Positions 15,336 through 19,626 of a DNA stretch of 22,011 bases are shown here, piece by piece. The stretch is taken from IMG/VR virus record IMGVR_UViG_2609459830_000015; one strand, 5' to 3'. The notes under the pieces were generated by a model. The model saw nothing but the letters and a program-made list of their open reading frames with translations. It did not search any database and was not told where the DNA came from. Each line of letters starts with the position of its first letter. The stretch's first letter is position 1. The translations under genes were made by a program, and so were the position numbers. The stretch comes from a virus (lineage: Duplodnaviria; Heunggongvirae; Uroviricota; Caudoviricetes).

Positions 15336-15748
15336 AGGTACCCGAACAGAAGCAGGCTTAAAGGTGCCTGTTCAGGTTGGCAACCAACTGACCCAACTCC
15401 TCATGTGTACTAGGGAAGTAGTACGTTTTTATGGGGAAGAGGGTAAGGGGGGTAAGGGGGGATTGGGTGTTGGGGCAGGAATAGGGTCTTTTCCAACAGG
15501 AGAGATCCATTGGTTAAGTAGATCACTGTCTTAAGGGCGCAATTTAAAAAAACGCCCGTATCAGCAAGGTAGTACAAAGCGCTCAGGCGCTGAGAAACGA
15601 AAAGGGTTCTTCCTGGAAGAGTGATTTTTCAGAGGAGCTGAATCAGAAGGGAGGCTGGCAGCCTTTGGGGAGGCCACCAGCCATGTGAGGGGGAATCCAT
15701 GAAAACCACATCACAAAATTATTATCTCATCAGCACGGGAGCTGCACA

Positions 15749-17407
15749 ATGGAGCTGACGATCACGCCGAATTTTGCACAGGAACGAGCGTTAAACATGT
15801 TGCGCCGTGACTGGAAGGCAAACGACACCTTCATGGTTTACTCGCCAACAGGTAGCGGTAAAACGGGTCTGGCAGCCTTCATAGTTGCTGGTTTTGTCAG
15901 CCGTGGTATGCGTGTTCTGTTCTGTGTTCCGTACACCATCCTGATTGGTCAGACGGCTAATCGGTTCGTGCAGTATGGTTTACCTGGAGATGAAATCGGT
16001 TATATCTGGGCGGATCACCCGAACTACGATCCGGACCGGAAAATTCAGATTGCCAGCGCTGACACGCTTATTCGTCGTGTTTTTCCTGAAAATATCGATC
16101 TGCTGATTATCGACGAAGCGCACCTGCGTAAAAAACGCATCCTGAAGGATATCGAACGTCTGCGCGGCAAAGGCGTAAAGGTGATTGGCCTGTCGGGTAC
16201 TCCGTTTTCTCCGTTCCTGGGCAAATACTATGACCGACTGATTAAGCCGACCACCATCGGCGAGTTAATCCAGCGTGGCGATCTGAGTAAATACGAATTT
16301 TACGCGCCAACTAAGCCGGATCTGAAAGGTGTTAAAACCACATCTTCGCTTGAGTACGGCCGCGATTACAACGAAACACAGCTGGCTGAAATCATGTGCG
16401 GCTCTACGCTGGTGGGCGACATCGTACAGAACTGGCTGGAGAATGGTCGGGATTTACCTACCATCGCTTTCTGCGTCAACGTAGCTCACGCCAATTATCT
16501 GACAATCCAGTTTAACCTGGCGGGTGTTAACGCTGAGGTAATGACCGCCGACACTCCGGTAGATGAGCGCCAGACCATCATTCACCGCTTTGAAACCGGT
16601 GCAACGAAAATCATCGTTAGTGTGGGCGTTCTGGTGGCCGGCTTTGATAGTGACGTTCGTTGCATCATCTACGCCAGGCCAACAAAAAGCGAAATTCGCT
16701 GGTTGCAGGCTCTCGGGCGTGGGCTGCGCACCGCACCGGGTAAAGAGTCCTGCCTTATCTTCGATCACAGCGGCACCGTGCACCGTTTGGGTTATCCGGA
16801 TTCAATCGAGTACGACGAGCTTCCCGGTAAGTCTGACGGCATGGAGGAAAGCGCGCGCCGGGCAGTTGAGGAACGGGCCGAAAAACTGCCACATGAATGC
16901 CCTCAATGCCACTACATGAAGCCAGCAGGCGTCTATGTTTGCCCGAAATGTGGACACAAGCCGCTGCGAGGTGAAGACGTTGATACTGACACTAGCCGCA
17001 AACTTAATAAGCTGGGTAAAAATCAGCATCAGTCGACGAAGGCAGAGAAACAGTCCTGGTGGAGTCAGATCAAATTTTATCAGCGCCAGCGTGCTTCGCT
17101 GGGGCGTCCAGTCAGTGACGGATGGTGTGCTCACACTTTCCGGGAAAAGTTCGGTGAGTGGCCTGACGGACTGAGTAACTTTCCGATGGAAATTACCCCT
17201 GAGGTAAATAACTACATCAGACACAAACTGATCCGGTTTGCCAAAGGCCACCAGCGGGTTCAGAAGGTCACTGAAAACGCACAAACAACGATTGATTTAT
17301 CTCAGGAACGTGATGAACGACGTGAGATACCGGCAGGCAGTGAGGCCTGGCGCATCATGCAGGCAAAGCACCAACTCCAGAAAAATATAAACAGTCTGAG
17401 TCAGTAA
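15749..17407 (+). CDS. SF2 DEAD/DEAH-box helicase with C-terminal zinc-ribbon (phage replication helicase)
   Basis: Walker A (YSPTGSGKTG), DEAH box (LLIIDEAH), motif III (LSGTPF), motif VI (QALGRGLRT), and a C-terminal CPQC...CPKCG zinc-ribbon. Confidence 0.85.
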   Translation: MELTITPNFAQERALNMLRRDWKANDTFMVYSPTGSGKTGLAAFIVAGFVSRGMRVLFCVPYTILIGQTANRFVQYGLPGDEIGYIWADHPNYDPDRKIQIASADTLIRRVFPENIDLLIIDEAHLRKKRILKDIERLRGKGVKVIGLSGTPFSPFLGKYYDRLIKPTTIGELIQRGDLSKYEFYAPTKPDLKGVKTTSSLEYGRDYNETQLAEIMCGSTLVGDIVQNWLENGRDLPTIAFCVNVAHANYLTIQFNLAGVNAEVMTADTPVDERQTIIHRFETGATKIIVSVGVLVAGFDSDVRCIIYARPTKSEIRWLQALGRGLRTAPGKESCLIFDHSGTVHRLGYPDSIEYDELPGKSDGMEESARRAVEERAEKLPHECPQCHYMKPAGVYVCPKCGHKPLRGEDVDTDTSRKLNKLGKNQHQSTKAEKQSWWSQIKFYQRQRASLGRPVSDGWCAHTFREKFGEWPDGLSNFPMEITPEVNNYIRHKLIRFAKGHQRVQKVTENAQTTIDLSQERDERREIPAGSEAWRIMQAKHQLQKNINSLSQ

Positions 17408-17408
17408 G

Positions 17409-18377
17409 ATGAAAACAGCAGATGCAGCGAAAGGCCGCTGGCCTGAAATATTAGAGCACTTCGGTCTGCCGCCGATAACCGGAAAAAATCACTTCAAGGG
17501 TGAATGCCCGGTATGCGGTGCACGTGGCAAGTTCCGAATTGACGACCGCGACGGTGCAGGAACGTGGATCTGTGTATGTGGTAGTGGCGATGGTATGAAA
17601 CTTGTCACCCTGACACAGGCGAAGCCATTTAACGAGATTTGTACCGAAATAGACCGCCTGATCGGTAATGATTACCAACGGGTTAAAATCCCGGTAACCA
17701 GCAGCGCCACCAGCTTACGCAAACGGGTATTGAGCAAGTTTTCAAAACTGGAGGCACTGCGTGGTACATCCGGCGCAGCGTATCTTAATTCTCGTGGAAT
17801 ATTCAGTCTTCCTGCTGAGGCGATCCGGTTCAATGCCAGGCAGAGACACAACGGGAGTGTGTTCCAGTCTCTTTATTCACTTGCTACGGACGATAAAGGG
17901 GAGTTGTGCTATCTGCACCAGACTCTGCTTGATGGTGATAAAAAAGCAGATATCGGTAGCAGTGCAAAGCGCCTCAAATCCCTGCAGGAAGATAACTATT
18001 TGGATCACGCTCGTTCTGTAGCTATCCGCATGTTTCCTGTCGCCAGCACTCTGGGTATCGCCGAAGGCATCGAAACAGCGCTGTCAGCGCACCAGATTTA
18101 TAACGTGAACACCTGGGCAACCATTAACAGCGGCTTTATGAAAAAGTTTCGCGTACCAGCTGGTGTTCTGCACCTGATTATTTTTGCCGACCGTGACGAG
18201 AACAGCGCCACCGGGCTGGCTGCGGCTTGCGAATGTGCTCATGCCAATCTGATGGCAAAGAATGACCTGCAGCGCGTGAGCGTGTACTGGCCGGATCACG
18301 ATGATTTCAACAATATGCTCATGAACGGTGATCAGGTTCGAGAGCTGGTTTTCCATAAGAAAAAGGCGGTTGCGTAA
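17409..18377 (+). CDS. DNA primase (zinc-binding N-terminus plus Toprim domain)
   Basis: CPVCGARGKFRIDDRDGAGTWICVCG zinc-binding motif; Toprim signatures (GIAEGIETALS with the conserved Glu; LIIFADRDENSATG with DxD). Starts 1 nt after the helicase stop. Confidence 0.75.
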   Translation: MKTADAAKGRWPEILEHFGLPPITGKNHFKGECPVCGARGKFRIDDRDGAGTWICVCGSGDGMKLVTLTQAKPFNEICTEIDRLIGNDYQRVKIPVTSSATSLRKRVLSKFSKLEALRGTSGAAYLNSRGIFSLPAEAIRFNARQRHNGSVFQSLYSLATDDKGELCYLHQTLLDGDKKADIGSSAKRLKSLQEDNYLDHARSVAIRMFPVASTLGIAEGIETALSAHQIYNVNTWATINSGFMKKFRVPAGVLHLIIFADRDENSATGLAAACECAHANLMAKNDLQRVSVYWPDHDDFNNMLMNGDQVRELVFHKKKAVA

Positions 18378-19234: not shown

Positions 19235-19626
19235 TGCGTGATATTCAGATGGTTCTCGAACGCTGGGGGGCATGGGCGGCAAGTGGTAACGCCGGGGTGG
19301 ACTATTCTCCGATAGCTGCTGGATTTAAAGGCCTTTTACCATCCACCGCTAAACCTCGCCCGGCCTGCAGCGATGATGACGGCCTTATCATCGAAAACTG
19401 CCTTACGCGCCTGAAGAAGAAAAAACCGGACGAGTATTCGCTGCTGGTAGCTCATTATCTGCTGCGCATATCAAAAAGGCAGATTGCCAGAACAAGAAAG
19501 AAGAGCGAAAAGGCAATACGAATTGAGATGCAGATTGCTGAAGGATTTATTGACGGATGTCTGTCGATGCTGGGTGTAAGGCTGGAGATGGACGACTGGC
19601 TGCCCAAAAAAGTAAAAAATGATTAG
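19234..19626 (+). CDS. Q-like late-gene antitermination protein (phage 82/21 Q type)
   Basis: MRDIQMVLERWGAWAASGNAGVDYSPIAAGFKGLL... resembles the N-terminus of phage-82-type Q antiterminators as I recall them. A strong intrinsic terminator lies about 60 bp downstream. Start taken as ATG 19234 (TAATG overlap) rather than the track's GTG 19225. Confidence 0.6.
   Translation: MRDIQMVLERWGAWAASGNAGVDYSPIAAGFKGLLPSTAKPRPACSDDDGLIIENCLTRLKKKKPDEYSLLVAHYLLRISKRQIARTRKKSEKAIRIEMQIAEGFIDGCLSMLGVRLEMDDWLPKKVKND

Follow-up and report, generated by a model that had tools for sequence, protein, structure and literature searches.

Related systems and the locus

In many temperate phages of Escherichia, Salmonella, Klebsiella, Citrobacter, Enterobacter, Morganella, and Pectobacterium, the O/P genes of lambda are replaced by a module that encodes a helicase and a Toprim primase. 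This module, known as Eru1 in Shiga toxin (Stx) phages, is also present in Stx-converting phages of pathogenic Escherichia coli. Here we analyse a 22,011-nt stretch of the Caudoviricetes record IMGVR_UViG_2609459830_000015 (the window, by which we mean the whole of this stretch), which covers the immunity and replication region of a lambdoid prophage, and within it the 413-bp gap (15336-15748) between an open reading frame (ORF) of 102 amino acids (aa) and the helicase ORF of such a module. The gap is not filler but holds a strongly conserved, G-rich, structure-forming DNA/RNA element common to many temperate enterobacterial phages. It comprises two units, a core of ~215 bp (~15385-15600) with its approaches and a helicase leader (15635-15758). 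In the literature that we searched, the module's origin is not located and the start of its replication is not explained; judged by its sequence, the core is the best candidate for this still unmapped origin, and a precise one with defined motifs.

The Eru1 unit of non-lambdoid Stx phages consists of a DEAD/DEAH helicase and a Toprim protein beside a LexA-family repressor (PMC8044961, PMC8951638). The window has the same gene content, and Stx phages of the Ss-VASD type carry a homologous core; unlike our element, Eru1 is defined by its genes, and its helicase is ~66% identical to that of the window. In PMC8044961, a whole-word search for an origin, iterons, or a non-coding element came back empty, as did term searches of PMC8951638. 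Nor is the element described in the papers that we searched on phage origins of the G-rich or R-loop kind, on the replication of Fels-1, and on Eru phages.

Several well-studied replication and control elements share some of the characteristics of the core. In ColE1, a structured transcript is read into the origin, where a run of six Gs in the RNA pairs with a C run of the template and stabilises the hybrid, and no plasmid initiator is involved. The core similarly has two G6 runs on the non-template strand, 3' of an early promoter and amid conserved hairpins, and a comparable hybrid is predicted here by analogy. It differs from ColE1 in having no sequence similarity and no equivalent or promoter of the antisense RNA I that we could find, and while ColE1 depends on RNase H and DNA polymerase I of the host, the phage module brings its own superfamily 2 (SF2) helicase and primase. 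The T4 origins oriF and oriG are activated by a transcript that stays hybridised, and the SF2 helicase UvsW acts on R-loops at these origins and on branched DNA. The helicase of the window is weakly similar to UvsW and more strongly to RadD. In contrast to the window, T4 is a lytic phage that brings a replisome of its own, the role of UvsW is to remove R-loops and not to initiate from them, and the origin sequences are dissimilar. The mitochondrial conserved sequence block II (CSBII), active in primer formation, and the pilE G-quadruplex (G4) of Neisseria are control elements based on G-quadruplexes or R-loops. In them, as in the core, a cluster of G runs on the non-template strand is proposed to act only when transcribed, through a hybrid or G4 that starts a DNA transaction; these elements belong to other organisms and processes, however, and the T run precedes the G runs in the core instead of following them.

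The core lies where lambda ori does, directly behind the gene in the cII position of the early-right operon, and dependence on transcription from PR is plausibly common to both. Lambda ori consists of four 19-bp iterons bound by O and an AT-rich region, all inside the initiator gene, whereas the core has neither, lies in a non-coding gap, and is not accompanied by O or P. IncQ plasmids (RSF1010, with helicase RepA and primase RepB') are also mobile elements with their own helicase and primase, and their oriV has single-strand priming sites in the form of hairpins of conserved sequence. Unlike the core, they possess RepC and iterons, and whereas their ssiA and ssiB hairpins are on opposite strands, those of the element share a single strand; we identified no iteron-binding initiator here. 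HK022 put and lambda nut, which act over a distance, resemble the element in yielding a structured sense-strand RNA 3' of PR with two adjacent hairpins, but neither has a counterpart of the G-run core. Put sites span ~70 nt, with two stem-loops and with related sequences 3' of both PL and PR; membership among them was rejected, with only chance words of 9-13 nt in common with the HK022 cro-cII region and with the TTAAAGGT hairpins and the GTAC motif of the element absent on the leftward side. Membership among lambda nut sites was rejected as well, the loops being of 8 nt (TTAAAGGT) rather than the GNRA-like pentaloops of boxB hairpins and confined to a single location; inspection of the gap by eye showed no boxA-like CGCTCTTA.

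A conserved pair of G runs on the non-template strand

The initial annotation had described the gap as a structured non-coding region with tandem repeats, G-tracts, a hairpin, and a near-palindrome, and had proposed a separate iteron-like origin upstream of the helicase. Every sequence feature that it listed is present, either exactly at the position given or at most two bases away. The G-tract occupies 15433-15475 on the plus strand, with a T5 run (15426-15430) directly 5' of it, and consists of six G runs of 4, 3, 6, 6, 3, and 4; over 15433-15476, 64% of the bases are G and only one is C. In line with the plus-strand quadruplex motif already noted, this tract is the sole canonical (G3+ N1-7)x4 match of the window on either strand, and its G4Hunter maximum of 2.4, the highest in the 22-kb window, was matched by 7 of 2000 shuffles of the gap. 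At its centre lies G6-TAA-G6 (15447-15461). The tandem repeat of GGTAAGGGG is exact (15442-15450 and 15451-15459), although as a key feature it did not withstand comparison: the perfect 9-mer repeat hinges on a T at 15444, which is A in all 40 aligned relatives (GGGAAAGGGGGGTAAGGGGGG), so that among these only the window's own lineage has the tandem. It was found otherwise only in near-identical copies of the window's sequence (e.g. L026 and L346). Since the relatives have A at 15444, the repeat unit is not the conserved feature; G6-N3-G6 is.

The whole G-tract is nearly invariant in 41 aligned relatives. Our statistics for the core rest on 209 unique cores, where the pair of G runs is 6+6 in 120 and 5+5 in 62, separated by AAA (95 cores), TAA (88), A (14), or, in the remainder, TTT, TA, TT, or TTA. 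Such retention of the G runs with a varying spacer is the pattern expected of G-run chemistry and not of a base sequence that is read out. A run of at least four Ts lies within 60 nt 5' of the G runs in 191 of the cores, and in other families GAA-loop hairpins of the GCGAAGC type stand in for some of the G runs.

Matches to the gap were found in the phages Fostie, YP3, and ENT39118, in 42 E. coli genomes, and in prophages of Enterobacter, Citrobacter, Trabulsiella, Pseudocitrobacter, Pseudescherichia, and Superficieibacter. Nucleotide identity to the window is 85-98% in the gap versus 70-95% in the genes of the 102-aa ORF, the helicase, and the primase; in Fostie the gap reaches 92-95%, compared to 80-84% in the helicase and 76% in both the 102-aa ORF and the primase. 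The initial annotation had made its proposal depend on conservation among phages with the same replication module, and the gap is indeed at least as conserved as its flanking genes, with the core present in every enterobacterial relative examined. In a per-column profile of 58 unique sequences, 15424-15528 and 15604-15735 are among the least variable parts, the former with 1-3% non-majority bases save for 4.6% at 15469-15483.

The layout of the core (G-run pair, T run, CCAA box, and GATC hairpin) is kept in Morganella, Pectobacterium, Symbiopectobacterium, and a Salmonella lineage, where the helicase is 65-69% identical, and in the Ss-VASD-type Stx phages, where it is 66% identical. With an identity of 93-100%, the Ss-VASD-type core is contained in 98 phage records, and 66 of these carry names that call the phage Stx-converting. 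Of 120 matches to the core pattern, 98 have a helicase 200-523 nt downstream; the others are unrelated sequences or truncated contigs, with the exception of L346 (IMGVR_UViG_2537561991_000013), which has a core identical to that of the window and no helicase detected within 3 kb downstream, and may represent an insertion or rearrangement. Overall, the core lies anywhere between 133 and 880 nt from the helicase, and ORFs can intervene; it is therefore not a translational operator of the helicase.

Strand asymmetry is as constant as the sequence itself. We gathered 288 related loci via the helicase, and in every one of the 266 with enough upstream sequence it is the helicase-sense strand that carries the Gs of the most G/C-skewed 40-nt stretch 5' of the helicase. 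In the window, GC skew is strongly positive over 15300-15700 and peaks at +0.40 at 15400-15599. A G-rich non-template strand 3' of a promoter, as is characteristic of R-loop origins, is therefore found here in the 43-nt G-tract, its skew, and its uniform orientation. The element is strand-specific, under purifying selection, and constantly linked to the helicase-primase genes and, where an upstream ORF was identified, to the 102-aa ORF.

At least ten independent IMG/VR contigs start (L035, L056, L065, L068, L069, L087, L088, L096) or end (L311, L344) within ~15447-15461, with breaks falling 289-299 nt 5' of the helicase ATG. These breaks in G6-TAA-G6 probably reflect sequencing or assembly drop-out at the G runs and give a weak, indirect hint that the tract is structurally difficult. 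The record of Escherichia phage vB_EcoS-611R1 (ON470586.1, 21,467 bp), whose helicase is 100% identical to that of the window, stops exactly at the helicase start codon and is probably a partial genome broken near the element. Whatever its function, the element is a practical landmark for annotation, and the recurrent assembly breaks within its sequence make it a possible sequencing hazard.

Hairpins with constant loops and family-specific flank motifs

The G runs are embedded in a series of plus-strand hairpins. Hairpin 1 (15325-15346; 7-bp stem, loop TTAAAGGT, -10.1 kcal/mol, z = -2.9) and hairpin 2 (15349-15373; CAGGC/GCCTG stem with the same loop, -10.9 kcal/mol, z = -2.7) together make up a direct repeat, D1. 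The TAA stop of the 102-aa ORF falls in the loop of hairpin 1 in the window only. Across families, this loop is closed by different stems (GGGT/ACCC, CAGGC/GCCTG, CAGGT/ACCTG, CCGGGC/GYCCGG, CTGAC/GTCAG, and ATGAC/GTCAT), with a compensatory CAGGT/ACCTG stem in hairpin 2 of ENT39118, and the G.U variants of hairpin 1 fit the plus strand only.

Downstream of the G-tract, the CCAA box GGGTCTTTTCCAACAGGAGAGATCC (15484-15508) forms a local hairpin, and together with a second small one the segment 15484-15530 (47 nt) folds at -13.7 kcal/mol. The box GGGTTCTTCCTGGAAGAGTGATTTTT (15604-15631) is invariant in 41 relatives. Within the CCAA box, CTTTTCCA (15489-15496) is complementary to TGGAAGAG (15612-15619). 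Analogous to this pair of the window, the equivalent of the CCAA box in other families (those around L185 and L216), GGCACTGCCAAGG, has a complementary partner ~110 nt further 3'. Pairing extends to 83.5% of cells of this long-range helix versus 34-44% in slid controls, and compensatory changes occur in L252. The helix, which was proposed by hand, has strong complementarity and little covariation within its sequence set. A GATC...GATC stem (15504-15524) with the conserved 13-nt loop CATTGGTTAAGTA appears in the alifold consensus; the same loop is carried by GGTAC/GTACC in L256 and L239 and by GATT/GATC in L013, and all 209 cores have at least one GATC 3' of the G runs. The GGGCG-N13(A7)-CGCCC hairpin (15535-15557; -8.1 kcal/mol, z = -2.1) has its arms at 15535-15539 and 15553-15557, as initially described, with a compensatory GGGCA/TGCCC in Fels-1 and GGGCG/CGCCT, a G.U pair on the plus strand, in many relatives.

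RNAalifold consensus structures of 41 close relatives and of 14 sequences from another family contain few double compensatory changes and small covariation terms, -2.0 kcal/mol in the 41 close relatives; one-sided stem changes are mostly G.U-compatible on the plus strand. The gap as a whole folds better than its shuffles on both strands (z = -4.3 for plus and -5.3 for minus), so folding alone cannot tell which strand is concerned.

The core is bracketed by an 18-bp motif. The left copy is the palindrome GTACTAGGGAAGTAGTAC (15407-15424), and the right copy, GTATCAGCAAGGTAGTAC (15558-15575), lies 151 bp away and is nearly invariant; the two form a second direct repeat, D2, and at up to two mismatches the motif occurs at only these two places in the window. 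In 88 loci the core is flanked on either side by GTACTAGGGAAGTAGTAC, which is nearly mutually exclusive with the TTTAGACGTCTAAA-type motif of other families, while Stx phages have TAGTT...GAAATAATT. The palindromic flank motifs are thus family-specific, ~150 bp apart, and of three sequence classes (GTAC-type, TTTAGACGTCTAAA-type, and Stx-type). The left copy can form a hairpin (-6.3 kcal/mol, 2 GC pairs) that is followed by GUUUUUAU and is weak as a terminator. Because the right copy does not fold into a hairpin (-0.3 kcal/mol), it behaves as a sequence motif and is probably a protein-binding site. Moreover, one family has the central six bases inverted (TTTAGC vs GCTAAA), and together with the non-folding right copy this leads us to interpret the flank motifs as double-stranded DNA sites. 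They were rejected as cI/cro operators, which are TTTATCGG..CCGATAAA-like. Clustering aimed at the protein that reads them was uninformative, as single linkage merged everything, and the correlation with primase clades may be mere linkage.

A candidate transcription-activated origin and its alternatives

We tentatively favour, at somewhat less than even confidence, the reading of the core as a transcription-activated origin region of the R-loop/G-quadruplex type that serves a helicase-primase module without an initiator. The gap would be the cis-acting control region of this module and its ~215-bp core the phage origin. Transcription would proceed rightward from the early promoter at 14726-14754, cross cro and the 102-aa gene, and enter the core, where the non-template G6-N3-G6 runs would give an unusually stable rG:dC hybrid with the template and hence an R-loop. 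The displaced plus strand would fold into a G-quadruplex and the conserved hairpins and hold the duplex open. A module-specific protein might bind the family-specific 18-bp motifs on both sides and position the complex, and the RadD/UvsW-like SF2 helicase and the Zn-ribbon/Toprim primase would then begin DNA synthesis at the core with host replisome proteins. The 124 bases at 15635-15758 form a separate unit, made up of the leader hairpin and a 19-codon ORF that would couple translation into the helicase.

This is the best single reading in view of the gene content of whole phages, the content of the corresponding slot in Vibrio, the DNA-type flank motifs, and the R-loop-prone composition. In whole phages with the module (37-42 kb 'plasmid' records from Klebsiella and others), the helicase and primase are the only replication genes. 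A separate origin at this position, as the initial annotation had proposed, is therefore plausible in a region so conserved, but its iteron-like nature is not supported. Vibrio phage 1.233.B (L412 1700-2470), with a helicase 58% identical to that of the window, has no G-tract in the slot; it holds instead AT-rich DNA, three 17-bp copies of ACGACAGAACCTGTCGC, and a gene for a RepL/HTH_36 'replication protein', along with a hairpin that resembles an intrinsic terminator. As for the plasmid records, modules were seen in 37-43 kb sequences deposited as plasmids of Klebsiella, Enterobacter, and Morganella (e.g. NZ_CP076549.1, NZ_LR890473.1, NZ_CP083847.1, and NZ_CP149982.1). Of these, only NZ_CP076549.1 (L410) was examined over its entire length, and it proved to be a complete temperate phage with an integrase; the records are presumably excised, replicating prophages captured by assembly.

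A number of observations weigh against an origin. There is no array of three or more iterons in the gap, the only repeats being two-copy families (the tandem 9-mer and the 18-bp flank motif). No AT-rich unwinding element is present in 15300-15799, where GC content stays at 0.485-0.515 in 200-nt windows and the only A/T run, ATTTAAAAAAA, lies in a hairpin loop. An O-like initiator gene is likewise absent among the ORFs scanned between cI and Q, none of which has a Phage_rep_O, RepL, or similar initiator domain. The 413 bp of the window contain two GATC sites and no GATC cluster, and neither DnaA boxes nor integration host factor (IHF) sites were seen in the gap by eye. Further, only 129 of the 209 unique cores (62%) have a canonical quadruplex motif of four runs, so that the G-run pair, and not a standard G-quadruplex, is universal. 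Mutual information with the class of flank motif has a weak maximum in the C-terminal tail of the helicase, and the repeats in Vibrio, rather than being iterons, could serve the RepL-like gene as operators. Finally, plus-strand hairpins with covarying stems and G.U-compatible changes would be explained equally well by a function in RNA. The displaced plus strand of an R-loop would carry the same hairpins, and for this reason sequence alone cannot separate an origin from an RNA element.

A cis-acting structured RNA in the early-right transcript, controlling the amounts of helicase, primase, and Q, is the main alternative, which we consider somewhat less likely than an origin. It might be a processive antiterminator or anti-pausing element (put- or nut-like, protein-independent or protein-assisted), an RNA stabiliser, or a processing site, and the basic helix of the 102-aa protein (RKENRARHEANTRLR) might bind the hairpins with TTAAAGGT loops. 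All structure signals are on the transcribed sense strand, where loops are constant and stems covary (the TTAAAGGT hairpins, the 13-nt-loop hairpin, the change from GGGCG/CGCCC to GGGCA/TGCCC, and the long-range helix of L252), and one-sided changes mostly leave G.U pairs. The variable distance to the helicase is tolerated, as it would be by a processive antiterminator; no N-like gene was identified in the left operon, of which the first ORF was scanned, and the gene for the Q antiterminator lies downstream in the same operon. On the other hand, covariance model scanning against Rfam (E<=1, 13500-17000) gave no match within 15336-15748, the HK022 putR region has no similarity, and no second copy exists on the side of the leftward operon, whereas put and nut sites occur in both operons. 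Failed membership in put, nut, and Rfam families lowers the probability that the element is a put or nut site, not that it works like one. A scan of the gap returned no convincing intrinsic terminator on the plus strand, and the alifold covariation term is small. Neither the non-folding right flank motif nor the inverted motif centre, which argues for a DNA site, suits an RNA element; the TTAAAGGT hairpins are missing from many families that keep the G core, and G runs without a C-rich partner are not ordinary helices. Should the element prove to be an RNA, the early genes of these phages would have a conserved cis-regulator of a kind not described before.

The flank motifs also lend themselves to a purely DNA-level interpretation, in which an operator or looping site, a transcription roadblock, or an insulator gates entry into the replication genes without being an origin. 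Palindromic, family-specific motifs ~150 bp apart and in three classes, a right copy that acts as a sequence motif and not as a hairpin, and a sequence that differs from the cI/cro operators, which implies another DNA-binding protein, all point that way. Yet no candidate regulator covaries sharply with motif class, a sigma-70-like promoter scan of the gap found none on either strand, and the invariant, strand-specific G runs and the covarying stems would be left unexplained, which makes such a site improbable. We regard it as more improbable still that the core is a by-product of composition, i.e. a long untranslated stretch of the operon that avoids Rho loading by being G-rich, C-poor, and structured, with some remnants of lost inserted genes and with only the leader and its upstream ORF being specific. 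The positive GC skew would fit, as would the inserted ORFs that fill the space between core and leader in relatives and the recurrence of the TCCTGGAAGAG box in the first part of the Fels-1 inserted ORF. Composition, however, needs no base-by-base invariance over 100 nt, and it accounts neither for the retention of G6-N3-G6 across families at 65% helicase identity nor for the flank repeats and constant hairpin loops. The least probable of these readings, and in our view a very improbable one, is an independent small RNA or small proteins encoded on either strand. Both strands do fold better than shuffles, two small hypothetical minus-strand ORFs are annotated under the gap match in the Fostie record, and a terminator-like hairpin was found on the minus strand (15370-15353). 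Nevertheless, the gap lacks a sigma-70-like promoter and an Rfam match, wobble changes fit the plus and not the minus strand, and hidden protein genes were rejected since 1-2-nt indels in the T, G, and A runs of relatives break every ORF longer than 30 aa and exclude the small ones annotated in Fostie.

If the core is a true origin, it would be unusual in being G-rich, transcription-dependent, and without an initiator gene, and it could bear on the speed at which Stx phages amplify their toxin genes after induction. A far-reaching extension, which we put forward as speculative and doubtful as a whole, is that it represents a class of initiator-less temperate-phage origins. In this class, a pair of G5-6 runs on the non-template strand would replace the AT-rich unwinding element, transcription from the early promoter would lead to an R-loop and to G-quadruplex and hairpins in the displaced strand, bracketed by module-specific protein-binding motifs, and the RadD-like helicase and the Toprim primase would recognise the structure, with the same device in Eru1-type Shiga toxin phages.

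A helicase leader with a conserved upstream ORF

The second unit of the gap precedes the helicase gene directly. Its leader hairpin (15653-15682, plus strand), GGCUGG..GCCUU/GGGGC..CCAGCC, contains the near-palindrome AGGCTGGCAGCCT, which is present at 15652-15664, two bases from where the initial annotation had placed it; it had been counted as part of a single candidate origin region but belongs to the translational leader of the helicase. The segment 15646-15700 (55 nt) with this hairpin folds at -21.1 kcal/mol, and in ENT39118 an A-to-G change lengthens the stem. A strong Shine-Dalgarno sequence, GAGGGGG (15687-15693), follows with an N5 spacing to the ATG at 15699 of a 19-codon upstream ORF, MKTTSQNYYLISTGAAQWS (15699-15758, plus strand), whose TGA stop (15756-15758) lies beyond the helicase ATG (15749), so that the two ORFs overlap by 10 nt. 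The gap has the length and position initially described, but owing to this conserved ORF it is not strictly non-coding.

The upstream ORF is kept in 41 relatives and in Fels-1, with a GTG start in L013 and an early stop in YP3. Its peptide is only loosely conserved, while the ORF itself is conserved, which suggests translational coupling into the helicase gene. The features expected of a leader peptide, namely a Shine-Dalgarno sequence of its own, a stop that overlaps the start of the next gene, and conservation, are all found in the 19-codon ORF. Ss-VASD has a comparable overlap with the helicase start, formed there by its inserted ORF of 125 aa. The leader is common to Fels-1 and phi467, where a 122-aa ORF sits between it and the core. 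Such an optional ORF of ~122-125 aa between core and leader was seen in Fels-1, phi467, and Stx phages, at L004 4106-4474 (Fels-1 STM0899), L005 3634-4002, and L411 2127-2504. The TCCTGGAAGAG box, non-coding in the window, is kept at the 5' end of the inserted ORF in Fels-1.

Gene context and minor observations

Leftward of the gap, the window encodes an S24-family repressor (13965-14657, minus strand), a YdaS/Cro-like gene with its 3' end at 15064, and the 102-aa ORF (15027-15335, plus strand), which matches phrog_852 (E = 3.7e-41) and has no Pfam or NCBIfam family match. Its AlphaFold model has three helices at low confidence (pLDDT 65), and its basic helix is conserved (RKENRARHEANTRLR / EPVSFRKENRARHEANTRLR). 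Wherever an upstream ORF was identified in enterobacterial, Stx-phage, and Vibrio relatives, the neighbour upstream of the core is a homologue of this ORF; in Ss-VASD the homologue (L411 ~1628-1920) was left unannotated.

Rightward of the gap follow the RadD/YejH-like SF2 helicase (15749-17407, plus strand; Pfam ResIII and Helicase_C, NCBIfam RadD 4e-27), which matches the Protein Data Bank (PDB) entry 6jde at 3e-20 and T4 UvsW weakly, and the Zn-ribbon/Toprim primase (17409-18377, plus strand; Pfam Toprim_3 and Zn_Ribbon_Prim). A 285-aa ORF and the Q antiterminator gene lie downstream of the primase in the same operon. The promoter-like site at 14726-14754, obtained from a promoter scan, faces rightward into this replication operon. 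In the left operon, the first ORF (13410-13829) encodes a helix-turn-helix regulator; no N-like gene was identified in the scan there, which covered this first ORF.

Likely cI/cro operators, TTTATCGGCTTTCCGATAAAT and related copies, are located at 14689-14710 and ~13880-13912 and bear no relation to the element's flank motifs. An A9 run followed by a GCCCACTTAAGAGTGGGC hairpin at 13921-13952, which separates the repressor gene from the adjacent ORF to its left, has the look of a bidirectional terminator; weak, sub-threshold Rfam matches (Trp_leader and STnc430) stem from this stretch. The second-highest plus-strand G4Hunter region of the window (1.56) is found just inside the start of the Q gene at 19254-19291, with a G6 run at 19265-19270.

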